NCBI GenBank assembly: GCA_001825155.1
Contig: MHVH01000004.1
Span: forward strand, 1 to 52,426
DNA from: Candidatus Zambryskibacteria bacterium RIFCSPHIGHO2_01_FULL_46_25
GTDB lineage: Bacteria; Patescibacteriota; Minisyncoccia; Phycocordibacterales; Zambryskibacteraceae
Direction: 5' to 3'
DNA length: 52,426 bases
Of the stretch, positions 5,179-49,022 are shown piece after piece. Under the pieces are notes generated by a model that saw nothing but the letters and a program-made list of their open reading frames with translations, searched no databases and had not been told where the DNA came from. The stretch's first letter is position 1. Each line of letters opens with the position of its first letter. A program made the position numbers and the translations under genes.

Positions 5179-5210
5179 GAGGCCGAAGTCGCGGATGCGA
5201 CTTCGGCCTC
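5179..5210. terminator. Strong hairpin between convergent genes, likely a bidirectional terminator.
   Basis: gaggccgaagtcgc ggat gcgacttcggcctc. Its stem is near-identical to the hairpin at 6474-6502. Confidence 0.6.
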
Positions 5211-6473: not shown

Positions 6474-6502
6474 AGGCCGAAGTCGCGACGCGACTTCGGC
6501 CT
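6474..6502 (+). terminator. Hairpin terminator, a paralogue of the 5179-5210 hairpin.
   Basis: aggccgaagtcgcg a cgcgacttcggcct followed by ttgctttt. The 17-nt string atgaggccgaagtcgcg is identical at 5177-5193 and 6471-6487. Confidence 0.6.
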
Positions 6503-9233: not shown

Positions 9234-10186
9234 AGATTTTAATCGCAACTGGATTGGAAAAATCTGACATAGGCGGGCCTTTTCAATACGCCCACAATCT
9301 CAAGGCGGAGTTTGAAAAACTGGGCAATAAAGTGAAGGTGGCAAAATATGGCTCAATAGAAGGCACTTTTTTGGGTATTTGGCCTCACGCCGTCTGGGCG
9401 GACAAAATTCTCGCGCTTGATACATTCTCGGTCGGGGTGCCGGCGGTTCTTGCCGGGAAATTATTGGGGAAGAAGACGATAGTCCGCGTCGGCGGGGACT
9501 TCCTCTGGTCGGCGTACGTAAACAGGACCGGCGTCTCAATAACTCTGCCGGAATTCTATAAAAGCATGCCGGCGCTTAACACGAAAGAAAAAATCATTTT
9601 TCATCTGTACAGATGGGCAATCAGAAACGCCGGCTTCCTGGCCTTCAATACCGAGTGGCAGAGAAGCATTTGGGAGAAAACATACGATATATCGTATGTT
9701 AAATCGGGAGTCGTAAGAAACTTCATTCCGGCTCGCCATAAAATCGGCGAGTCCGCCAATCCGGATAGCGGAAAGAATTTTTTGTGGGCGGGCAGAGTGA
9801 TTCCGGAGAAGAATCCCGGAATGTTAAGGAGTCTTGGCGTCGATATAGTTACCGGAGAAGCCCACGCAAGAGTTTTGGAGAAGATAAAGAATTCTTATGC
9901 CGTAACCTCCCTTGCCTTTACGGACATCTGCCCTAATTTTGTGATAGAAGGCATCTCTTTCGGTAAGCCCTTTGTTATGACTCGCGAAACCGGCCTTGAT
10001 GAAATCTTCCCGAAGGGCGGAATATTTGTCGACCCTCTGGATGAGAAACAGATTAAAGAAGCGATGCAATCGCTTCGCGATGAAAATACTTATAATAAAT
10101 ATACCGATGGCATAAAGAGTCTTAATTTAAGCCATTCCTGGGCTAGGATGGCGGAAGAATTTCTAAGTATATGGAAAAAGATTTGA
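9230..10186 (+). CDS. Glycosyltransferase-like protein, divergent GT-B/GT4-like.
   Basis: ATGA overlap with the upstream GT4 gene. The C-terminal half has the GT-B-like segment FVIEGISFGKPFVMTRETGLDEIF. Confidence 0.6.
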   Translation: MKILIATGLEKSDIGGPFQYAHNLKAEFEKLGNKVKVAKYGSIEGTFLGIWPHAVWADKILALDTFSVGVPAVLAGKLLGKKTIVRVGGDFLWSAYVNRTGVSITLPEFYKSMPALNTKEKIIFHLYRWAIRNAGFLAFNTEWQRSIWEKTYDISYVKSGVVRNFIPARHKIGESANPDSGKNFLWAGRVIPEKNPGMLRSLGVDIVTGEAHARVLEKIKNSYAVTSLAFTDICPNFVIEGISFGKPFVMTRETGLDEIFPKGGIFVDPLDEKQIKEAMQSLRDENTYNKYTDGIKSLNLSHSWARMAEEFLSIWKKI

Positions 10187-11343
10187 AAATTTTAATGATT
10201 TCAAGTGACCGCAATATCCTTACCCCAGGCAGCGCGGTTTCGGAGCGGATGAAGGAATACGGCGGTCTTGTCGAAGAGTTGCATATTGTCTTGCTTTGCG
10301 ATAGCTCGCACACAAGCTCATTGAAAATTGAAAATGGGAAATTGAAAATTGCCGAAGGCGTATACGTCTATCCGACCAATTCTTCCATGAAGATTTTGCG
10401 TCCCCTCGATGCCGCGAGAATAGGCAAGAGAATTGTTTTGAAGAACAAATTCGTACGCGGAGAATGCGTTGTCACCACCCAGGATCCGTTCGAATGTGGC
10501 TGGGCGGGTTTGAATGTTAAGAAAAAGTGGAGAATTCCTCTTGAAGTTCAGCTTCATACCAATCCATTCTCGCCATATTTTGGTGGATTTCAGAATAGAG
10601 TGCGACAGTTTTTCGCAAGAACGGTTCTTGCGAGCGCCGATAATATCCGCGTAGTGTCTGAAAATTTGAGACACAACATTGAAAATTTATTGAAAATTGA
10701 AAATTCTAAATTGAAAATTTTGCCCATTTATGTGGACAAAGACCAGATTGAGAATGGGCAAATCTCCTTCGACCTCCATGCACGCTATCCGTGGCACTTC
10801 ATACTGCTCGCCGCGTCCCGCATTACACCGGAGAAGAATCTAAGTATGGCGCTTCGCGTTCTTGCCTTGGTGCGGGAGCGGTATCCGAGTACCGGACTTG
10901 TTATCGCTGGCTCTGGTTCAGAAGAAAAAGTTTTGAAATCGCTTGTGGAAAAGCTGGGTCTCGCAGGTTTTGTAGAATTTGTCGGTTGGCAGAGCGAGTT
11001 GGCATCCTTCTATAAGACTGCCAATGCGTTTATCCAGACCAGTTTCTACGAAGGATATGGCTTGGCTCTGGTTGAGGCTGGACTCTCCGGTTTGCCGGTC
11101 GTGACAACACCTGTTGGCATCGCAACTGAGCTTGAGAACGGCAAAGACGCCTACATTTTCCCCCACGATCGTCCGGACATGTTCGCCGCCGGCATTGTAG
11201 ACCTTATAGAGAACAACGAGAAGCGGGAGAATCTAAGAGTGAATCTCAAGCACACTCTCGATGCCAGACTCCTTTCTAAGGAGGATTATATGGCTAAGAT
11301 AAGGGATAATTGGGAAAAGACAGCGCTAAAGATCAAACCATGA
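10171..11343 (+). CDS. Glycosyltransferase family 4.
   Basis: QTSFYEGYGLALVEAGLSGLPVVTTPVG signature. It carries two heptad mini-elements in-frame. Confidence 0.85.
   Translation: MEKDLKILMISSDRNILTPGSAVSERMKEYGGLVEELHIVLLCDSSHTSSLKIENGKLKIAEGVYVYPTNSSMKILRPLDAARIGKRIVLKNKFVRGECVVTTQDPFECGWAGLNVKKKWRIPLEVQLHTNPFSPYFGGFQNRVRQFFARTVLASADNIRVVSENLRHNIENLLKIENSKLKILPIYVDKDQIENGQISFDLHARYPWHFILLAASRITPEKNLSMALRVLALVRERYPSTGLVIAGSGSEEKVLKSLVEKLGLAGFVEFVGWQSELASFYKTANAFIQTSFYEGYGLALVEAGLSGLPVVTTPVGIATELENGKDAYIFPHDRPDMFAAGIVDLIENNEKRENLRVNLKHTLDARLLSKEDYMAKIRDNWEKTALKIKP
10320..10350 (+). repeat. Heptad mini-element, ATTGAAA type variant, translated as KIENGKLKI.
   Basis: ATTGAAA ATTGAAA ATGGGAA ATTGAAA ATT. 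Confidence 0.65.
10678..10721 (+). repeat. Heptad mini-element, ATTGAAA type. The core at 10689-10721 is identical to 12662-12694 and 40211-40243. Translated as KIENSKLKIL.
   Basis: attgaaaattgaaaattctaaattgaaaatttt(g) is identical over 34 nt at three loci. Confidence 0.85.
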
Positions 11344-30704: not shown

Positions 30705-31657
30705 CAACTAATATAAATCAAATAAAAAGAATATCAGTAATTGTTCCCGTATATAATGAGGCCGGAAACATTATCCCACTTCATAAAGAGATAAAAGATT
30801 CTCTTGCTTCTATCAAGTCTAATATTGAGATTATTTATGTGAATGACGGAAGCACTGACGATTCGCTGATTGAAATGTGCTCACTTCAAGATGTTTCTAT
30901 ATTAGATCTAAATCGAAATTACGGACAATCGGTGGCACTTGATGCGGGCTTCAAAGCGGCAACAGGTGAGATTATCGTCACATTGGATGGAGATGGGCAA
31001 AATGATCCTTGCGACATTCCTCATCTTCTTCAAAAATTTGAAGAAGATCATCTGGATGTCGTAGCCGGTTGGAGAAAAAAAAGAAACGACCCGTGGAATA
31101 TTCGATTTATCACAGACGTAGCAAGATTTTTTCGGAGATTGATTATCGGTGATATTATTCATGACTCAGGATGCACATTGCGTGTATACCGGCGAGCTGC
31201 TGTGAAGAGTTTAGACATAGGGGGAGAAATGCATCGCTACATTCTAGCCCTTCTTAAGTGGAAGGGTTTTCGTATAGGAGAATTGGAAGTAAATCATCGA
31301 TTACGTACTCGTGGTAGAAGCAATTATGGATCTTCCAAAGCTTTTCGTGGCCTTATTGATCTCGTATACATTTGGTTTATACATAAATACTCGGACAGGC
31401 CAGTACACTTGTTCGGGTACATGGGTTTAACTTCTTTAGGACTCGCTGGGCTATCTTTATTCTGGTCTCTTTATGAAAAAATTATGAAGGGACTTAGTCT
31501 AAATAGGAATGGCTGGTTCTTTATTGGCTCCTTCTTCTTTTTGGCGGGAATAATATTTTTCAGTTTTGGAATTGTAATCGACATAGTTATTCGGATGCAG
31601 CTTACTCTATCTCCGAATGAAAAACGCTACTATATTAGAGAAATCATAAAGAAATGA
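30701..31657 (+). CDS. GT2 polyprenyl-phosphate glycosyltransferase, ArnC/Dpm1/GtrB-like, with C-terminal TM helices.
   Basis: VIVPVYNEAGNI, the DGD motif LDGDGQNDP, and two C-terminal hydrophobic helices. Confidence 0.85.
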   Translation: MTTNINQIKRISVIVPVYNEAGNIIPLHKEIKDSLASIKSNIEIIYVNDGSTDDSLIEMCSLQDVSILDLNRNYGQSVALDAGFKAATGEIIVTLDGDGQNDPCDIPHLLQKFEEDHLDVVAGWRKKRNDPWNIRFITDVARFFRRLIIGDIIHDSGCTLRVYRRAAVKSLDIGGEMHRYILALLKWKGFRIGELEVNHRLRTRGRSNYGSSKAFRGLIDLVYIWFIHKYSDRPVHLFGYMGLTSLGLAGLSLFWSLYEKIMKGLSLNRNGWFFIGSFFFLAGIIFFSFGIVIDIVIRMQLTLSPNEKRYYIREIIKK

Positions 31658-40560: not shown

Positions 40561-43071
40561 ATGGCCATATTATCAGGCTTATTCGGCTCTCCGGAAGAAA
40601 AGAAGCTTCGCCAGTGGCGCCCGCTTGTTGAGCGCGTCAATTCGTTTGAGCCAGAGATGGAGAAGCTCTCAAACGAAGAATTAAAAGGGAAGACACTCGA
40701 ATTCAAAAACCGCCTTTCAAAAAGCGAATCGCTTGATGCGCTTCTGCCGGAAGCTTTTGCTGCCGTACGTGAAGCGGCCAAGCGCACATCAAGACTCAAG
40801 CAGAGGCATTTCGACGTGCAGATTCTCGGCGGTATCGCGATGTACAACGGCGGCATCGCTGAAATGAAGACTGGCGAGGGCAAGACACTCGTCGCGACTC
40901 TGCCGGCATATCTCGTGGCGCTCGAAGGCAAGGGTGTGCATGTGATTACCGTCAACGACTATCTCTCCCGCCGCGATGCCGTGTGGATGGGTGAGATTTA
41001 CGCGGCGCTTGGCCTCTCGGTTGGCGTGCTCAACGACCAGGCTTCGTATCTTTATGACGAATCGCACCAGACCCAGGAAGCCGACAAAGAAAGGGACGAA
41101 ACAGGCTCTTTCCGCGTCGTTTACGACTTTCTTCGCCCCGCGACAAAACAGGACGCCTACCGAGCGGACATTACTTATGGCACGAACAATCAATTTGGCT
41201 TTGATTATCTGAGGGATAACCTTGTTTATGATAGAGAGAATCTCGCTCAGCGCGATTATCACTACGCGATTGTCGACGAGATTGACTCGATTCTTATCGA
41301 CGAGGCCAGAACGCCGCTTATCATCTCCGGCAATACCGGCGCCGCCGGCGAACTTTATACAAGATTCGCGAAGATTGCCGGCTCCCTCGATGAAAACAAG
41401 GATTATGCTGTGGATGAGAAACTCAAGGCAATTTCACTTACGGACGATGGCATAAGCAAGGCGGAGAAAATGCTTGGCGTCGAAAATATTTATACCCAAG
41501 GAGGCATCAAGTATGTCCACCATCTCGAAACGGCGGTTAAGGCGAAAGCTCTTTACCACAAAGATAAGGAATATGTGGTAAAAGACGATGAAGTAGTAAT
41601 CGTTGATGCTTTTACCGGTCGTCTACAGCCCGGCAGGCGCTGGTCCGAAGGCCTTCATCAAGCCATAGAGGCCAAGGAAGGAGTAAGGATAAAGGAGGAG
41701 AGCCGCACTTACGCGTCAATCACATTCCAGAACTATTTCAGGATGTACAAGCGCCTATCCGGCATGACCGGTACGGCGCTTACTTCCAAAGAAGAATTTT
41801 ACAAAGTTTACGGGCTTGAAACTTATGTTGTGCCAACTCACAAGCCGGTTGCCAGGACCGACCATGGCGATCTTATTTTCCAAACACAGGCAGGCAAGAT
41901 GAAGGCGGTGGCGAAGAAGGCAAAGGAGTTGAGCCAAAAGGGTCAGCCATTGCTTATAGGCACGGTCTCAATCGAGCACAACGAGCTACTCTCCGAGTAT
42001 CTCAAGAGCGAGGGCATCAAGCATATCGTCTTAAACGCCAAGAACCACGAGCAGGATGCCCAGATTTACGCTCAAGCGGGCAAAAAGGGCTCCGTAACCG
42101 TGGCAACCAACATGGCTGGTCGAGGTGTTGACATCAAGCTCGGCGGCAATCCTTCCACGCCGGAACAATACGAAGAGGTCAAATCTCTTGGCGGACTTTT
42201 TGTCCTTGGTACCGAGCGTCACGACGCGCGCCGCATCGACAACCAGTTGCGCGGTCGTGCCGGACGCCAGGGTGATCCGGGAGCAACACAATTCTTTGTC
42301 TCGCTCGAAGATTCACTTATGCGAATCTTCGCCGTAGACGCCATCAAGAAGATGATGGGCCGTTTCAATATTCCCGAAGACGAGCCGATAGAGAACAAGC
42401 TCATTACCAACTCTCTCGAGAAGGCGCAGGAGAAGATTGAGGGCTTCAACTTCGACGCGAGGAAGCATGTGCTCGAGTTCGATGACGTACTCAACTTCCA
42501 ACGAAGCATCATCTACAAGAAGAGAAGAAAGGTGCTTGTTGGCAGCGAAGGTGATGTCAAAGATTATCTGGTGGAAGTCGGCAATAGTCTAGAATCTGAG
42601 CTTAAAGAAAAATTTGATTCCAAGCTCGCAAGCGAGAAGGCCTTCGAGCCCGTCGCGCTCGAAGCGTGGCGCAGGATTATTATCCAGACAATGGACCTCT
42701 TTTGGGTTGAACATCTGGAGATGATGGAATATCTGCGCGGCAGCGTGAATCTGCGAGCTTACGGCCAGCGCGATCCGCTTGTGGAATACAAGAAGGATGG
42801 TCTCCGATTCTTCCGAGAGATGGAGGCATCCATCGGTCGCCAAATTGCCGAGTTTGTTGTCACGCTTGACCTCGATGTGCTTACCGGTATCAAAGCTTCG
42901 CCCATAGAAGCCGAAGCCAAGGTTGTGGGGCATAGCGAGAGCAAGCCGATTTCCGCCAAGCCCGAAGCAGGGAGGAACGACCCATGTCCTTGCGGTAGCG
43001 GCAAGAAGTATAAGAAGTGTGGACTCCTCAACACTCCGGAACACCAACAAAGAATAGCTTCTATAAAATAA
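40561..43071 (+). CDS. secA: Preprotein translocase ATPase SecA.
   Basis: The sequence is SecA-like across its full length, including the GEGKT Walker A, TGMTGTA, and the C-terminal zinc motif CPCGSGKKYKKCG. Confidence 0.95.
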   Translation: MAILSGLFGSPEEKKLRQWRPLVERVNSFEPEMEKLSNEELKGKTLEFKNRLSKSESLDALLPEAFAAVREAAKRTSRLKQRHFDVQILGGIAMYNGGIAEMKTGEGKTLVATLPAYLVALEGKGVHVITVNDYLSRRDAVWMGEIYAALGLSVGVLNDQASYLYDESHQTQEADKERDETGSFRVVYDFLRPATKQDAYRADITYGTNNQFGFDYLRDNLVYDRENLAQRDYHYAIVDEIDSILIDEARTPLIISGNTGAAGELYTRFAKIAGSLDENKDYAVDEKLKAISLTDDGISKAEKMLGVENIYTQGGIKYVHHLETAVKAKALYHKDKEYVVKDDEVVIVDAFTGRLQPGRRWSEGLHQAIEAKEGVRIKEESRTYASITFQNYFRMYKRLSGMTGTALTSKEEFYKVYGLETYVVPTHKPVARTDHGDLIFQTQAGKMKAVAKKAKELSQKGQPLLIGTVSIEHNELLSEYLKSEGIKHIVLNAKNHEQDAQIYAQAGKKGSVTVATNMAGRGVDIKLGGNPSTPEQYEEVKSLGGLFVLGTERHDARRIDNQLRGRAGRQGDPGATQFFVSLEDSLMRIFAVDAIKKMMGRFNIPEDEPIENKLITNSLEKAQEKIEGFNFDARKHVLEFDDVLNFQRSIIYKKRRKVLVGSEGDVKDYLVEVGNSLESELKEKFDSKLASEKAFEPVALEAWRRIIIQTMDLFWVEHLEMMEYLRGSVNLRAYGQRDPLVEYKKDGLRFFREMEASIGRQIAEFVVTLDLDVLTGIKASPIEAEAKVVGHSESKPISAKPEAGRNDPCPCGSGKKYKKCGLLNTPEHQQRIASIK

Positions 43072-43072
43072 C

Positions 43073-43097
43073 CACTTGGAAACTCAGTTTCCAAGTG
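43073..43097. repeat. REP-like 25-nt palindrome, copy 1. It lies between the secA stop and the RAYT start.
   Basis: cacttggaaact c agtttccaagtg. Confidence 0.85.
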
Positions 43098-43110
43098 CTA
43101 TTATTTAAAC

Positions 43111-43776
43111 ATGAGAAAGGTTACATTTCTAGATGGAGAGTACTACCATATTTATAATCGGGGAGTTGATAAGCGTGTAATTTTTAATGATGATAAAGAC
43201 TTTGAGAGATTTCTGGTAAGTATGAATGATTTCAATTCGGTGGAGCCAATTGGGAGTATTTATGAGCACTCATTTCATAAAAAGTCTCGACTTGGAAACT
43301 CAGTTTCCAAGTCAGAGCCTAAATCAACAAAAAAGAAGATTAAGCCGCTGGTTGATTTTGTGGCTTATTGTCTTAATAAGAATCATTTCCATTTTATTGT
43401 TAAACAAGTATCAGATAGAGGTGTAGAGAAGCTAATGCATAGATTGGGACTTGGATTCACAAAGTATTTTAACTTAAGACATGAAAGAACCGGCTCATTG
43501 TTTCAAGGGCCATTTCAAGCTGTACATATTGATTCCAACGAGTATCTACTCTATGTTGGCGCATATGTGAATTTGAATAATTTAATTCACGGATATATAA
43601 ATTCTACAGAATTTAGATCAAGCTGGGGCGAATACACAGGCAGGGGATACGGAGGTTTTTGCAAGGTCGATATAATCTTGGGGCAATACAAAAATAGTGG
43701 CGAATACAAAAAGATTGCCGAACAGACTACGAGGGAGATTAAAAGAAAGCGTGATTTAGATCACTTGGAAACTTAG
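43111..43776 (+). CDS. IS200/IS605-type Y1 (HUH) transposase of the REP-associated (RAYT, COG1943-like) kind.
   Basis: HUH motif NHFHFIV. The segment GSLFQGPFQAVHIDSNEYLLYVGAYVNLN includes the catalytic-Tyr region. The gene is bracketed by the palindromes at 43073 and 43762. Confidence 0.8.
   Translation: MRKVTFLDGEYYHIYNRGVDKRVIFNDDKDFERFLVSMNDFNSVEPIGSIYEHSFHKKSRLGNSVSKSEPKSTKKKIKPLVDFVAYCLNKNHFHFIVKQVSDRGVEKLMHRLGLGFTKYFNLRHERTGSLFQGPFQAVHIDSNEYLLYVGAYVNLNNLIHGYINSTEFRSSWGEYTGRGYGGFCKVDIILGQYKNSGEYKKIAEQTTREIKRKRDLDHLET
43290..43312. repeat. REP-like palindrome, copy 2. It lies inside the RAYT ORF and is translated as LGNSVSK.
   Basis: acttggaaact c agtttccaagt. Confidence 0.8.
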
Positions 43777-43786
43777 TTTCCAAGTG
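43762..43786. repeat. REP-like palindrome, copy 3. Its central T creates the TAG stop of the RAYT gene.
   Basis: cacttggaaact t agtttccaagtg. The stop codon is at 43774-43776. Confidence 0.85.
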
Positions 43787-44781: not shown

Positions 44782-45321
44782 ATGGTAGAACTTGTAAAAT
44801 CTTTTTTGCCTTATGCCGTGCTCGTCTCGCACGTTCTACTGGTGGCGCTCTTTCTCGCGATAATTTTCCGTAAATCGTGGGGGAGAAAGGCGTCCGCCTT
44901 TCTCAACCAGCGCGCTTTGACATTCGGTTTAATAATTTCCCTCGGCGCCATTGTCGGTAGCCTCTTCTATTCCGAAATTGTGGGATATGAGGCTTGTGTG
45001 CTTTGCTGGTGGCAGAGAGTTTTTCTCTATCCGCAACTTGTTCTGTTCACAATAGCTCTGTGGAAGAATGACCGGTCCGTCTTCGGCTACTCGTTTGTCC
45101 TCTCGTCTCTTGCGGGTATCGTTGCTTTATACCAGGCCTATGTTAATTGGGGCGGAGCTTCTCTCTTGCCATGCACGGCGGCCGAAGGCGCCTGCGCGAA
45201 AATTTTTGTCATGGAGTTCGGCTATATCACTATCCCTGTTATGTCGCTTACAGTTGTTTTCTATCTCCTGCTTCTCGCCTGGATAAACCGCTTGTATCGA
45301 AATGAAAATCGCAACGCATAA
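44782..45321 (+). CDS. DsbB/BdbC-family disulfide bond formation protein.
   Basis: CVLCWWQRVFLYP (first Cys pair), PCTAAEGAC (second pair) and four TM segments. Confidence 0.8.
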   Translation: MVELVKSFLPYAVLVSHVLLVALFLAIIFRKSWGRKASAFLNQRALTFGLIISLGAIVGSLFYSEIVGYEACVLCWWQRVFLYPQLVLFTIALWKNDRSVFGYSFVLSSLAGIVALYQAYVNWGGASLLPCTAAEGACAKIFVMEFGYITIPVMSLTVVFYLLLLAWINRLYRNENRNA

Positions 45322-46184: not shown

Positions 46185-46568
46185 ATGCTACAAATAGCTA
46201 CAAATAAAGAAAAGGATTCAAAATTACTATACCCTAAATTATCTTACGAGATAGTCGGAATGTGTTTTGAGGTTCATAACGAGTTAGGTCAATTTGCTAG
46301 AGAAAAGCAGTATGCCAATCTCGTAGAACAGAAGCTTAAGAATAAAGGTATAAAATATGAAAGGGAGTGCCCACTCGGAGATTCTGGCAATATTGTTGAT
46401 TTTGTGATAGAAAACAAGATCGTGCTTGAGTTAAAGACTGTTAGAGTGTTAGGTCGCACCCATTATCGGCAATTACAGAATTACCTTCAACAGACTAAAG
46501 TGGAGCTTGGTTTACTTCTGAACTTTAGTGACAAGCTCTTAAGCCCAAAAAGAGTGCTGAAAGTATGA
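46185..46568 (+). CDS. GxxExxY protein, PD-(D/E)XK-like.
   Basis: The segment SYEIVGMCFEVHNELG...EKQYANLVEQKLKNKGIKYERE is family-typical, and so is the size of 127 aa. Confidence 0.85.
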   Translation: MLQIATNKEKDSKLLYPKLSYEIVGMCFEVHNELGQFAREKQYANLVEQKLKNKGIKYERECPLGDSGNIVDFVIENKIVLELKTVRVLGRTHYRQLQNYLQQTKVELGLLLNFSDKLLSPKRVLKV

Positions 46569-46618: not shown

Positions 46619-47590
46619 ATGTTTATAGACGAAATCACTCTCCATCTCAAGGCGGGTCGCGGTGGCGACGGCGTGGTGCGTTGGCGGCACGAGAAAGGCA
46701 AAGACAAGGGCGGTCCATCCGGAGGCAATGGCGGCAAGGGTGGTGATGTGTATGCTATTACCGTAAGAGATATTGGTATTCTGGCGAGCTACAGGAATGT
46801 AAAAGAATTCGAAGCGGGCAGAGGGAATGATGGTTTCAAGGATTTGAAACAAGGCGCCGAGGGCAAGGATGTGGAAATAAAATTTCCTGTCGGTGCTCGC
46901 GTTACGAATCGCACGACAGGCCATTTCATCGAGCTTCTTAAGGATGGAGAAAAAGTTTTGCTTCTCAAGGGCGGCAGGGGAGGTATGGGCAATGAACATT
47001 TTAAAGGCTCTACTAACGTGAGGCCCAGGCAGTCTACGGATGGAGAAATTGGTGAAGAGGCAGATTTCTACACCGAGCTCCTTCTGATGGTCGATTTGGG
47101 CCTTATTGGTCTTCCAAATGCTGGCAAATCAAGCCTGCTTAACGCCCTGACGAATGCTCAGGCCAAGGTGGGCAATTTCCCCTTCACAACCCTTAACCCT
47201 GGTCTAGGAAGCTTCTACGGCCTTGTTCTGGCCGATATCCCAGGGCTCATAGAGGGGGCGGCGGATGGTAAAGGTCTTGGTCATAAGTTCCTGCGGCATA
47301 TCGAGCGCACCAAGGCGCTTCTTCACTGCGTTTCTTCAGAATCAGAAGACCCGCTCGAAGCGTACCGGATTGTGAGAAACGAACTCGGGCTCTATAATAA
47401 AGCCATCACGGGTAAGCCGGAGATAGTCGTGCTGACGAAGACTGATACTGTTTCAGAAGCAGAAGTGAAAGAAAAGATTAAAGCGCTTAAATCAGTTTCC
47501 AAGGATATTGTCCCGATTTCAATTTTGGATGATGAGCTAATTAAAAATTTAAAATTTAGAATTTCCAATTTAAAATTTAATGAAAATTGA
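46619..47590 (+). CDS. obg: GTPase Obg.
   Basis: The N-terminal Obg fold begins MFIDEITLHLKAGRGGDG. The G1 motif is GLPNAGKSS and the G3 motif is DIPGLIEGA. The last ~15 aa are encoded by a heptad mini-element. Confidence 0.95.
   Translation: MFIDEITLHLKAGRGGDGVVRWRHEKGKDKGGPSGGNGGKGGDVYAITVRDIGILASYRNVKEFEAGRGNDGFKDLKQGAEGKDVEIKFPVGARVTNRTTGHFIELLKDGEKVLLLKGGRGGMGNEHFKGSTNVRPRQSTDGEIGEEADFYTELLLMVDLGLIGLPNAGKSSLLNALTNAQAKVGNFPFTTLNPGLGSFYGLVLADIPGLIEGAADGKGLGHKFLRHIERTKALLHCVSSESEDPLEAYRIVRNELGLYNKAITGKPEIVVLTKTDTVSEAEVKEKIKALKSVSKDIVPISILDDELIKNLKFRISNLKFNEN
47492..47504. repeat. Half-REP relic inside obg.
   Basis: tcagtttccaagg matches the right arm of the 25-nt palindrome over 12 nt. 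Confidence 0.4.
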
Positions 47591-47594
47591 AAAT
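47546..47594 (+). repeat. Heptad mini-element, AATTTAA / TGAAAAT type, spanning the obg stop and the gatB start.
   Basis: aatttaa aatttag aatttcc aatttaa aatttaa tgaaaat tgaaaat. The gatB ATG is at 47580 and the obg TGA at 47588. Confidence 0.65.
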
Positions 47595-49022
47595 TATCGA
47601 CTTACCGTAGGATTGGAGATTCACGCGGAATTGAAGACCAGAACCAAGATGTTCTGTCAGTCGAAAAACGATACTGATGAAACGCGCCCCAATGTCAATA
47701 CTTGCCCTGTCTGCATGGGTTATCCCGGTACTCTGCCCGTTATCAATAAAGAAGCTGTAAGGTCGGTTCTGCGCCTTGGAGTAGCCGTAGGCGGCAAAAT
47801 TGCCGACTATACCGAGTTCGACCGCAAAAATTACTTCTACCCCGATATTCCCAAAGGTTACCAGATAAGCCAATATAAGCACCCGCTCGTAAGCGGGGGC
47901 GAGCTTGCCGGAGTAAAACTCACCAGAATCCACTTGGAAGAAGACACAGCGAGATCCTTGCACGAACTTGGAAACTCAGTTTCCAAGTGTCTTTTGGAAA
48001 CTGAGTTTCCAAGTGGGGAGTCTTATCTCGATTTCAACCGAGCAGGGGTTCCACTTATGGAAATGGTAACCGAGCCCGTGATACATACCGCAGAAGAAGC
48101 TGTGAAGTTCGCAAAAGAGCTCAAACTTCTTCTGCAGTATCTGGGCATCTCGCTGGCCAATATGGAGAAGGGCGAGATGAGGGTCGAAGCTAACGTAAGC
48201 GTTAGCTTCGACAAATCACAAAACCCAAACTCCAAATCTCAAACAAATCCTAAACTAGGCACAAAGGTAGAAATAAAAAACCTCAATTCATTCAAGGCCC
48301 TAAGCCAGGCCATAGAATTCGAACACCAGAGGCAGGTAGAGATACTGGAGAGAGGGGAGAGTGTAATCCAAGAAACTCGCGGCTGGGATGAGAACAAATC
48401 CGAGACATTTTCGCAAAGGGCGAAGGAAGAGTCTCATGATTACAGGTATTTCCCCGACCCGGACCTTCCAAAGATTTTCTTAAGCGAAATGCCCGACTTC
48501 GCTCCGACGGAGCTTCGTCGGGCGCTGCCCGAGTTGCCATGGGACAAGAGAGAACGTCTTTTGAAGTTGGGCATCTCATCCGAGCACGCGGAAATTTATG
48601 TTACCCAGCCCGAATGGGGGGAGTATTTTGAAGAGGTATTCAACCACTTGGAAACTGAGTTTCCAAGTGGTGCTCAGCTGGCTTCCAACTACATAACTTC
48701 GGAATTAAAAAAACCGGTGGACGCTGGCGCGTTTGCCGACACCATGCGCATGATTGTTTCCGGGAAAATATCTTCCAGAGGAGCGAAAGAAATTTTGAAA
48801 ACGTTGCAGGAGAAAGGCGGCGAGCCAAGGGCAATCGCCGAGGAGAAAAATTTGATGCAAGAGAGCGACAGAGAGATTTTGAGAAAAATTGTTGAGGAGG
48901 TTTTGGCAGAAAACAAAAAAGCCCCGGTCCAGTTTCTGGTGGGGCAGGCGATGAAGAAGTCGGAAGGCAGGGCGAATCCGGTTATCCTTCAGGAACTATT
49001 CGTCGAGATGCTGAATCGTTAG
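47580..49022 (+). CDS. gatB: Asp/Glu-tRNA amidotransferase subunit B. It contains three REP insertions and one heptad-type insertion, all in-frame.
   Basis: GLEIHAELKTRTKMFC, CPVCMGYPGTLP, LDFNRAGVPLMEMVTEP, EIKNLNSF and a C-terminal YqeY-like tail. Confidence 0.95.
   Translation: MKIENYRLTVGLEIHAELKTRTKMFCQSKNDTDETRPNVNTCPVCMGYPGTLPVINKEAVRSVLRLGVAVGGKIADYTEFDRKNYFYPDIPKGYQISQYKHPLVSGGELAGVKLTRIHLEEDTARSLHELGNSVSKCLLETEFPSGESYLDFNRAGVPLMEMVTEPVIHTAEEAVKFAKELKLLLQYLGISLANMEKGEMRVEANVSVSFDKSQNPNSKSQTNPKLGTKVEIKNLNSFKALSQAIEFEHQRQVEILERGESVIQETRGWDENKSETFSQRAKEESHDYRYFPDPDLPKIFLSEMPDFAPTELRRALPELPWDKRERLLKLGISSEHAEIYVTQPEWGEYFEEVFNHLETEFPSGAQLASNYITSELKKPVDAGAFADTMRMIVSGKISSRGAKEILKTLQEKGGEPRAIAEEKNLMQESDREILRKIVEEVLAENKKAPVQFLVGQAMKKSEGRANPVILQELFVEMLNR
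47966..47989. repeat. REP-like palindrome, copy 4 (centre C), in gatB, translated as LGNSVSK.
   Basis: acttggaaact c agtttccaagtg. Confidence 0.85.
47994..48015. repeat. REP-like palindrome, copy 5 (centre G, opposite orientation). It forms a head-to-head doublet with copy 4 and is translated as LETEFPSG.
   Basis: ttggaaact g agtttccaagtg. Confidence 0.85.
48213..48254 (+). repeat. Heptad-periodic A3-N-CC-type tract in gatB, translated as KSQNPNSKSQTNPK.
   Basis: aaatcac aaaaccc aaactcc aaatctc aaacaaa tcctaaa. Confidence 0.5.
48645..48669. repeat. REP-like palindrome, copy 6 (centre G), in gatB, translated as HLETEFPSG.
   Basis: cacttggaaact g agtttccaagtg. Confidence 0.85.

Follow-up and report, generated by a model that had tools for sequence, protein, structure and literature searches.

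The stretch of DNA analysed here, which we refer to as the window, comprises positions 1–52,426 of contig MHVH01000004.1 from Candidatus Zambryskibacteria bacterium RIFCSPHIGHO2_01_FULL_46_25, a member of the Patescibacteria or candidate phyla radiation (CPR). At 43111–43776 (forward strand) it carries an open reading frame (ORF) for a 221-aa HUH/Y1 protein of the REP-associated tyrosine transposase (RAYT) type, REP denoting repetitive extragenic palindromic sequences; the assignment draws on the ORF list, Pfam, a family alignment and a structure model. The gene lies between secA (40561–43071) and a gene encoding a VTT-domain membrane protein, and it is flanked and interrupted by copies of a single short palindrome whose 23-nt core reads ACTTGGAAACT-N-AGTTTCCAAGT. 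Six matches to this core occur in the window, compared with 0.00 expected from 100 dinucleotide shuffles, and chance is ruled out as their source; one of the six (47992–48014) contains two mismatches. As single-stranded DNA the cognate copies fold into hairpins of −10.4 to −13.6 kcal/mol, with z-scores between −6.5 and −7.3.

Three of the copies belong to the RAYT gene itself. The upstream palindrome, CACTTGGAAACTCAGTTTCCAAGTG (43073–43097), has a 12-bp stem around a central C, begins 1 nt past the secA stop codon (43069–43071) and ends 13 nt before the RAYT start codon. The copy at internal site 1 (S1) occupies 43289–43313 on the forward strand (25 nt including a flanking G/C pair; 23-nt core at 43290–43312) and is translated as (R)LGNSVSK(S), residues 60–68 of the protein, with LGNSVSK at 61–67. 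The third copy (43762–43786) lies at the 3′ end of the gene and has a T at its center, position 43774; because of this T, the ORF stops at a TAG codon at 43774–43776, and the window sequence shows that a C or an A in its place would extend the frame by 16 codons. A run of T residues follows, and both the upstream and the 3′ copies score as intrinsic-terminator-like sites. An initial annotation, made from the sequence alone, had described these copies upstream of, within and at the end of the ORF, including the positioning of the first directly after secA and 13 nt before the ATG, the translation of the second and the derivation of the stop codon from the third, and the present analysis bears out each of these points base for base. 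A fourth palindrome, TAAATTCTACAGAATTTA, at internal site 2 (S2; 43598–43615, forward strand), directly follows the codon of the invariant His160. It is non-cognate and weak (8-bp stem, −3.4 kcal/mol, z = −2.4) and may be the decayed remnant of a hairpin site.

The remaining three copies are all located in gatB (47580–49022, forward strand), which encodes subunit B of the Asp/Glu-tRNA amidotransferase (E = 2.9e-98 to 3al0_B). They lie at 47966–47988, 47992–48014 and 48646–48668, are all in frame, and are read as LGNSVSKCLLETEFPSG and HLETEFPSG; the palindromes that the initial annotation had noted at 47.5–48.7 kb are indeed the same element as those flanking the RAYT gene. The first two are inverted copies, with centers C and then G, spaced 3 nt apart, and form a doublet (47966–48014, forward strand) translated as LGNSVSKCLLETEFPS that resembles a REPIN, a REP doublet folding as one long hairpin. 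This doublet folds into a single hairpin with a 21-bp stem (−23 kcal/mol). The third is a single copy whose stem is lengthened to 14 bp (48643–48671, forward strand) and which is translated as NHLETEFPSG. The doublet was not found in any other GatB orthologue compared, and only two others among 72 orthologues have a hairpin of any kind. An Rfam scan of the 42.5–49.2 kb region at E ≤ 1 returned no RNA family.

The protein encoded by the RAYT gene contains the motifs NHFHFIV, with H92 and H94 (43384–43392), and AYVNLN, with the putative catalytic Y152 (43564–43566). All three residues are invariant across the 61 sequences of the family alignment. The Pfam Y1_Tnp profile (PF01797) scores 21.1 bits against the whole protein, just below its gathering score of 23, and aligns only to residues 81–154, whereas the catalytic core with the family-specific insert and tail removed scores 24.9 bits over profile positions 6–119 of 121. 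The profile matches 61 of 61 aligned family members, with a best E-value of 7.4e-10. The expected Y1_Tnp hit is in this respect borne out by the core and the relatives and narrowly missed by the full-length query. An AlphaFold model built from the 61 sequences has a mean predicted local distance difference test (pLDDT) score of 83.9 and a predicted template modelling (TM) score of 0.82, and it assigns H92 and H94 to strand 93–99 and Y152 to helix 143–154; the helical region C-terminal to Tyr152 is family-specific. The only part modelled with low confidence is residues 58–73 (pLDDT < 50), the peptide contributed by the internal palindrome, which is predicted to form a disordered surface loop.

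The closest match to this model in the PDB according to Foldseek is 4er8_A, the E. coli TnpA-REP protein bound to a REP hairpin (E = 1.3e-4, probability 1.00, target TM-score 0.59), followed by the TnpA chains of IS608, ISDra2 and IS200 (probabilities 0.82–1.00). More than 4200 homologues of 211–242 aa are found at E ≤ 1e-3; those with named sources come from Patescibacteria groups, and some sources label them transposase or RayT. Judged by profile, model and structural match, the ORF reads as an intact HUH/Y1 protein of RAYT type, as first proposed from its HUH motif and C-terminal tyrosine, and as a member of a large clade found mainly in Patescibacteria. It is present once in the window, and the protein is on record for 34 contigs. 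Some genomes carry two family members, the second copies being divergent paralogues with different hairpins. At five loci a second Y1 paralogue, 30–58% identical to the first, lies a few kb away, and at one of these it adjoins secA on the opposite strand.

The position of the upstream palindrome suggests a role in expression of the gene that follows it. A promoter-like site at 43076–43104 (forward strand) consists of the −35 box TTGGAA (43076–43081), a 17-nt spacer and the extended −10 element TGcTATTAT (43096–43104). The −35 box is contained in the left arm of the palindrome, and the TG of the extended −10 corresponds to the last two bases of the palindrome. The −10 element ends 6 nt before the ATG (43111), a leaderless geometry, and the upstream copy may therefore supply both the −35 and the TG of a leaderless-type promoter. 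Similar spacing is seen in relatives: the center of the upstream palindrome falls 26–28 nt before the ATG in 31 of 60 loci, and a TAnnnT motif lies 4–9 nt before the ATG in 54 of 78 RAYT genes, 36 of them TG-extended. The same test applied to 625 control ORFs gave 34% and 14%, respectively. Binding of the enzyme to the promoter copy would probably result in autoregulation. As a separate observation, about a third of the control ORFs of at least 150 aa at loci L080–L158 have TAnnnT 4–9 nt before the ATG, which suggests that leaderless transcripts may be common in these Patescibacteria.

To place the window gene in its family, hairpins with at least nine paired bases (one mismatch allowed) were mapped onto the protein alignment for 79 homologous loci, taken from one-genome-per-species contigs. 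A hairpin is located ∼40 nt 5′ of the ATG in 63 of the 79 genes and at or just past the stop codon in 60; several of the genes counted as lacking the upstream hairpin have imperfect palindromes there. The S1 position, where the window has its internal copy, is occupied in 49 genes, and S2, after the invariant His160 that follows the catalytic-tyrosine helix, in 38. Hairpins are found at all four sites in 19 genes. The hairpin-bearing arrangement of the gene is thus a conserved architecture and not a one-off accident. Where S1 has no hairpin, the loop is 7–10 aa shorter in some homologues, while genes without a cognate S2 hairpin have an unchanged loop length, which implies decay or replacement at S2 rather than an empty site. 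The E. coli rayT locus proved uninformative as a control, in that our detector (stems of at least 8 bp, at most one mismatch) reported no hairpin in 1 kb around rayT. An assembly artefact is ruled out by the recurrence of the architecture across dozens of independent metagenome-assembled genomes (MAGs), and a CRISPR array by the absence of regular spacing.

The sequences of the hairpins differ among loci in a structured way. The foot of the stem, ACTTGG/CCAAGT, is mostly retained, compensated changes alter the inner 4–5 bp and the loop, and a few lineages (L139, L155 and L124) have quite different palindromes. Within a locus the copies agree: in 57 of the 69 loci that have two or more hairpins, the 9-nt inner arm is the same from one hairpin to another, even though 60 distinct dominant arms are represented among 75 loci. 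Two paralogues of one genome have private hairpin variants that are a single compensated base pair apart, and two further paralogue pairs likewise have private variants. Divergence of the inner stem is correlated with divergence of the RAYT protein (Mantel r = 0.21), a value reached in 0 of 2000 permutations.

Conservation of the palindromes also extends to the nucleotide level. Six genomes share the palindrome of the window, with RAYT proteins that are mostly 54–67% identical (one pair, 92%). At positions where the amino acids are identical, codon identity among these genes is 33–53% outside the palindromes and 6/6 to 16/16 within the shared ones, and synonymous positions in S1 are all identical between genomes that are otherwise saturated. 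Selection at the protein level cannot yield codon identity, which leaves two possibilities: selection acts on the DNA or RNA sequence itself, or a common pool continually overwrites the copies.

The genomic context of the gene is also conserved. In L239, a Zambryskibacteria MAG, the order Wzy_C, secA, RAYT, VTT, …, DsbB, MYG1, …, Obg, GatB, MerR is the same as in the window, with a RAYT protein 66% identical to that of the window, and the secA–RAYT pairing is also present at two further loci (L097 and L151). Since this synteny spans relatives whose RAYT proteins are only 47–66% identical, the gene appears to be vertically inherited, old and chromosomally fixed, and is probably not an ordinary insertion sequence (IS). 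Two local differences between L239 and the window are an extra 137-aa ORF between secA and RAYT (L239 5531–5944; window 43072–43110) and a PaaX_M-domain gene (L239 9163–9729) where the window has an unrelated 127-aa ORF (46185–46568).

Comparison with L239 also gives an indication of recent events. The upstream, S1 and 3′ copies of L239 have A or T centers, its 3′ copy follows a TAA stop codon and a short spacer, and its gatB contains no copy. Relative to L239, the centers of the upstream and S1 copies of the window have switched to C, three C/G-centered copies have appeared in gatB, and a ∼30-nt deletion has fused the ORF to the 3′ palindrome at a point 13 nt inside it; this palindrome retains an A/T-type center (T) and so supplies the stop codon. 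The C/G-centered copies upstream, at S1 and in gatB appear to record recent activity in the window lineage.

Beyond the RAYT gene itself, copies of the cognate palindrome are strongly over-represented and dispersed, although their abundance is low compared with classical REPs. We find 22 in 744 kb of flanking sequence, where non-cognate palindromes predict 0.31. The exact palindrome of the window is found in 79 stretches from many Patescibacteria classes, including ∼15 copies in three LBYD01 contigs (0.92 Mb) of a Moranbacteria MAG. Of 82 distinct copies outside RAYT loci, 49 (∼60%) fall within open frames of 150 aa or more, compared with 79% of random positions; most dispersed copies are thus intragenic rather than extragenic. 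Apart from gatB in the window, confirmed hosts elsewhere are topA, pheT, dnaX, argS, mnmA, a dinB-like polymerase gene and genes for radical-SAM enzymes, and genomes share orthologous insertions in which the palindrome has been preserved despite divergence of the codons on either side. Although most copies are singlets, doublets whose members abut or overlap are also seen repeatedly in other genomes. One recurrent doublet, seen at seven loci, has a second, 5′-truncated copy abutting the first (∼42 nt, or 14 codons); several genomes have it in topA and in other genes, where it encodes (D)LETKFPSGNLVS(K). Seven palindrome-bearing contigs come from MAGs labelled Gammaproteobacteria, Paludibacter or Bdellovibrionales and are probably mislabelled or mis-binned CPR contigs. 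Viral contigs contained no copy of the palindrome and gave no sign of a phage vehicle.

The surroundings of some copies hint at how they arise. Eighteen of 102 copies are positioned at the apex of a longer, locus-specific stem contributing 4–16 extra base pairs, against ∼0.4 expected by chance, and several of the outer stems resemble pre-existing terminator hairpins or another palindrome. In the pheT gene of locus L066 (4218–4254), an ACTTGG palindrome is nested in a 7-bp outer stem, CCATTCC/GGAATGG; an orthologous PheT (L077; 73% identical) instead has at this site an unrelated palindrome, CCAACATT-G-AATGTTGG, in two copies. At S2, some stems take in the native His codon by means of an inverted copy (CACCA…TGGTG), which adds the residues LV. 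These patterns can be read as copying or replacement targeted to existing hairpins, possibly aided by template switching.

We propose that the window encodes a domesticated RAYT-type nuclease whose recognition hairpin has been built into the promoter and terminator of its gene and into two permissive loops of the protein, and that the enzyme keeps these copies and a small dispersed set alike and occasionally seeds in-frame copies elsewhere; on balance we regard this as the probable explanation. The enzyme would recognize a hairpin composed of the conserved foot ACTTGG…CCAAGT and a lineage-specific inner stem and loop. The upstream hairpin would end secA transcription and provide the −35 and the TG of the extended −10 for a leaderless transcript, and further hairpins would be accommodated in the disordered surface loop at S1, after the catalytic-tyrosine helix at S2 (decayed in the window) and at the stop codon, where the hairpin would act as a terminator. 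Binding and cleavage would take place on single-stranded DNA. The enzyme might then copy or replace hairpins, preferring DNA that already forms hairpins and sites that are permissive, so that the hairpins of one gene or genome stay alike (concerted evolution), with new copies occasionally seeded elsewhere, including in frame in essential genes such as gatB.

A stronger version of this proposal is conceivable, and we advance it only tentatively. The gene would be a self-referential cassette in which one hairpin serves as promoter, two translated loops and terminator, apex-targeted copying keeps these copies and a small dispersed population identical, and the internal copies are functional, for copy control, autoregulation or as master copies, rather than passive scars. 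If so, hairpin-targeted copying would be the reason that REP-type elements in reduced genomes live mainly in essential genes, and translated.

Several results weigh against a RAYT-type enzyme that actively propagates its hairpin. First, the protein scores 23 bits against the NCBIfam equivalog NF047646 (REP_Tyr_transpos), for which the cut-off is 80, and a PDB search with the family sequence profile was negative at E ≤ 1. For this reason the kinship to characterized RAYTs rests on the fold match and Pfam, and the family would be a remote, distinct clade of the Y1 superfamily. Second, the promoter assignment consists of consensus matches, and −10-like motifs are also common at the control genes (34%). 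Third, the patchy occupancy of S1 and S2 fits repeated gain or repeated loss. Fourth, copies outside the RAYT gene number about one per 34–77 kb, and with so low a copy number any drive must be weak or rare. Finally, no pair of empty and filled sites was found among GatB orthologues or in the GatB cluster: the 90%-identity cluster of the window GatB contains only identical or truncated sequences, every one with the inserts, and in the closest orthologues (≤67% identity) the two loops are too divergent to set insertion boundaries or a target duplication. The inserts in GatB amount to 17 and 9 aa. Net length differences are nonetheless measurable, gatB site 1 being ∼14 aa longer than the usual 3-aa loop and site 3 only 2 aa longer than in L239.

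One alternative is an accidental self-hit, in which the element recently inserted into its own mobilizing gene and the stop codon within the palindrome is a one-off. Hairpin-less sites do exist, with loops 7–10 aa shorter in some homologues lacking S1; the ∼30-nt deletion relative to L239 that joins the ORF to the 3′ copy is specific to the window lineage; and the lineage-specific gatB copies attest that the element can land in coding DNA. Yet S1 and S2 are occupied in 49 and 38 of the 79 genes at the same alignment positions, including S1 in the syntenic, 66%-identical orthologue, the internal copies co-vary with the flanking copies locus by locus, and a 3′ hairpin at or just past the stop is general across the family. 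We therefore consider an accident of this kind unlikely. The description of the gene in the initial annotation as a transposase hit by its own element is only partly right: the internal copy is no unusual accident of this gene, given same-loop hairpins in 49 of 79 homologues, L239 among them. At the stop codon, the feature peculiar to the window is the 13-nt fusion, a 3′ hairpin as such being present in 60 of 79 genes.

Alternatively, the palindromes could be host sites, such as terminators, operators for a dimeric protein or sequences resembling uptake signals, that are maintained by selection or biased recombination and are not moved by the Y1 gene. The resemblance of the intergenic copies to terminators and promoter parts is in line with this, as is the occurrence of the exact 23-mer in many Patescibacteria classes, and nucleotide-level conservation fits a binding site equally well. 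It is difficult, however, to see a reason for an in-frame regulatory site inside gatB, topA, pheT, dnaX or argS, or why every RAYT paralogue of a genome should have a private variant. The density of the element at the RAYT gene (3–4 copies per 0.75 kb) is >100-fold above that elsewhere, and the closest structure to the RAYT protein is an enzyme bound to just such a hairpin. Sites of purely host origin seem improbable to us on these grounds.

The arrangement could also be an ordinary IS of the IS200/IS605 type, in which the entire cassette of ∼0.75 kb transposes and the flanking hairpins form its left and right ends. Such an element would have a Y1_Tnp domain and a compact form delimited by hairpins whose distances to the start and stop codons are constant, as observed, and two family members do occur in some genomes. 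Against this, the gene occupies the same post-secA position in relatives with only 47–66% RAYT identity, both ends are one perfect palindrome rather than distinct imperfect left- and right-end hairpins, the palindrome also occurs alone and away from transposase genes, and there are no matches in viral contigs. Multiple identical copies with IS-type ends, which the initial annotation had held up as the mark of an ordinary IS, were not seen: there is one copy in 52 kb, and the second copies found within other genomes are divergent paralogues with hairpins of their own. The converse expectation, a single-copy RAYT accompanied by many REPs that are enriched elsewhere in the genome, holds in part, with one gene in the window and a clear cognate excess (22 versus 0.31) but few copies, mostly intragenic, so that the signature is a weak one. 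We judge transposition of the whole cassette very unlikely.

Least probable of all is that replication template-switching (quasi-palindrome correction and snap-back synthesis) alone makes, perfects and extends the hairpins, because, although stems stay perfect through compensated changes as the sequence drifts, extend into native codons (CACCA…TGGTG at S2 and a VEANVS palindrome at gatB 48183–48212) and occur in excess in the window (14 perfect hairpins with stems of at least 10 bp versus an estimated ∼0.35), this process cannot put the same 23-mer at unrelated loci or hold four sites of one gene and the dispersed copies identical. It may well act alongside the enzyme.

Other palindromes in the window deserve mention in their own right; the expectation of ∼0.35 for perfect hairpins given above was estimated from the window length and loop range. 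The palindrome at 48183–48212 in gatB is perfect, with a 13-bp stem (GTCGAAGCTAACG-TAAG-CGTTAGCTTCGAC), and encodes VEANVSVSFD. The conserved GatB motif VEANVSVS accounts for the left arm and a portion of the right one, and the last 6 nt of the palindrome, encoding FD, resemble an inverted copy of its start, which suggests that the stem may have been extended by template switching. The palindrome TCGCAAGAAC-G-GTTCTTGCGA (10613–10633) is translated as FARTVLA inside a family-1 glycosyltransferase gene, and an identical copy lies in gatB of another Patescibacteria MAG (L159 1157–1177), making it a candidate second family of mobile, translated palindromes. A GC-rich family, (A)GGCCGAAGTCGC…GCGACTTCGGCCT, is represented by two copies with 14-bp stems (5179–5210 and 6474–6502); the window has no related Y1 gene, and no copy was found in any fetched locus. 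Four more perfect palindromes with 10–14-bp stems, at 2800–2827, 9679–9700, 31023–31048 and 44883–44904, are all in open frames: respectively, a 212-aa frame without a Pfam match, an ORF with only a weak glycosyltransferase match, a GT2 glycosyltransferase gene and the DsbB gene.

Returning to the proposal of a domesticated RAYT-type nuclease with dispersed hairpins, we can ask how closely it corresponds to characterized systems. The nearest is E. coli TnpA-REP (RayT/YafM) with its REPs and bacterial interspersed mosaic elements (BIMEs) (PMC2817692, Nunvar 2010; PMC3479197, Messing 2012, 4ER8; PMC8266576, Corneloup 2021). The two have in common an HUH/Y1 fold, for which TnpA-REP is the best structural match, and an apparently fixed chromosomal gene flanked by cognate hairpins and present in single copy, here one copy in the 52-kb window. 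As with E. coli REPs, the hairpins are dispersed in the genome and double as terminator-like structures. The window protein is nevertheless remote in sequence from TnpA-REP (23 versus 80 bits for NCBIfam, and no PDB match by profile). It is also the longer of the two: ∼35 aa are inserted ahead of the HUH strand, and a helical region of ∼60 aa is found at the C terminus. Its hairpins are perfect 23–25-nt palindromes without the GTAG tag of E. coli REPs, they number tens rather than hundreds, the dispersed ones are mostly intragenic, and copies are found also in the coding sequence and promoter of the enzyme itself.

The RAYT/REPIN systems of Pseudomonas (Bertels & Rainey 2011, PMC3116915; Bertels et al. 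2017, PMC5581495) provide a second comparison. Vertical inheritance (probable in the window), the pairing of one RAYT with one REP family, the coexistence of several RAYT–REP pairs in a genome with a sequence of their own each, and doublets that fold as one long hairpin, exemplified here by the gatB doublet, are features of both. Pseudomonas REPINs (Groups 2 and 3) are extragenic and abundant, unlike the copies described here, whose low number is closer to RAYT Groups 1 and 4, with 12–14 occurrences of the flanking 16-mer. The system thus resembles RAYT/REP(IN) systems in that a gene for a protein with the HUH/Y1 fold is flanked by cognate hairpins and appears to be inherited vertically, each enzyme has a single hairpin family, and doublets occur. 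It departs from them in that its REPs are neither extragenic nor abundant and its enzyme scores below the NCBIfam equivalog threshold. In a limited literature search, which is no proof of absence, we found no report of REP/RAYT systems in CPR bacteria and none of REPs occupying conserved sites in the promoter or coding sequence of a RAYT. The role of single-copy domesticated transposases and the manner in which REPs spread are unclear in RAYT/REP systems generally, and the Patescibacteria clade offers an unusually legible version of this puzzle. Because its hairpin is short, perfect, low in copy number, co-varying with the enzyme and present at fixed sites, recognition specificity, autoregulation and copying are testable with a 25-nt oligonucleotide and a 221-aa protein.

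A more distant relationship is to the IS200/IS605 family, represented by the TnpA proteins of IS200, IS608 and ISDra2. These share with the window the Y1_Tnp domain, a compact unit bounded by hairpins and, presumably, recognition of hairpins on single-stranded DNA. IS200 has an upstream hairpin that blocks read-through. The gene in the window differs from this family in that it is not multi-copy, is syntenic over long divergence, has identical perfect palindromes at both ends and lacks a tnpB, its neighbours being secA and the VTT-domain gene; in addition, the hairpin spreads on its own.

The location of the dispersed copies invites a final comparison. REP-type elements need not be extragenic and can persist in the gene-dense, reduced genomes of CPR bacteria as translated inserts of ∼8–16 aa in essential proteins, which bears on CPR annotation, on protein-family alignments and on the survival of selfish DNA in streamlined genomes. 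A similar lifestyle is that of the Rickettsia palindromic elements (RPEs), which Ogata and colleagues reportedly described in 2000 as palindromic selfish DNA of ∼100–150 bp in frame in housekeeping genes. RPEs are not known to have a cognate enzyme. Miniature inverted-repeat transposable elements (MITEs) of Coxiella are also inserted in genes (PMC5896051). Like RPEs and these MITEs, the palindromes described here are in-frame inserts in housekeeping genes, translated in permissive loops. In contrast to RPEs, the unit is only 23–49 nt, or ∼8–16 aa, and it is linked to a particular Y1 gene in which the element is itself present.

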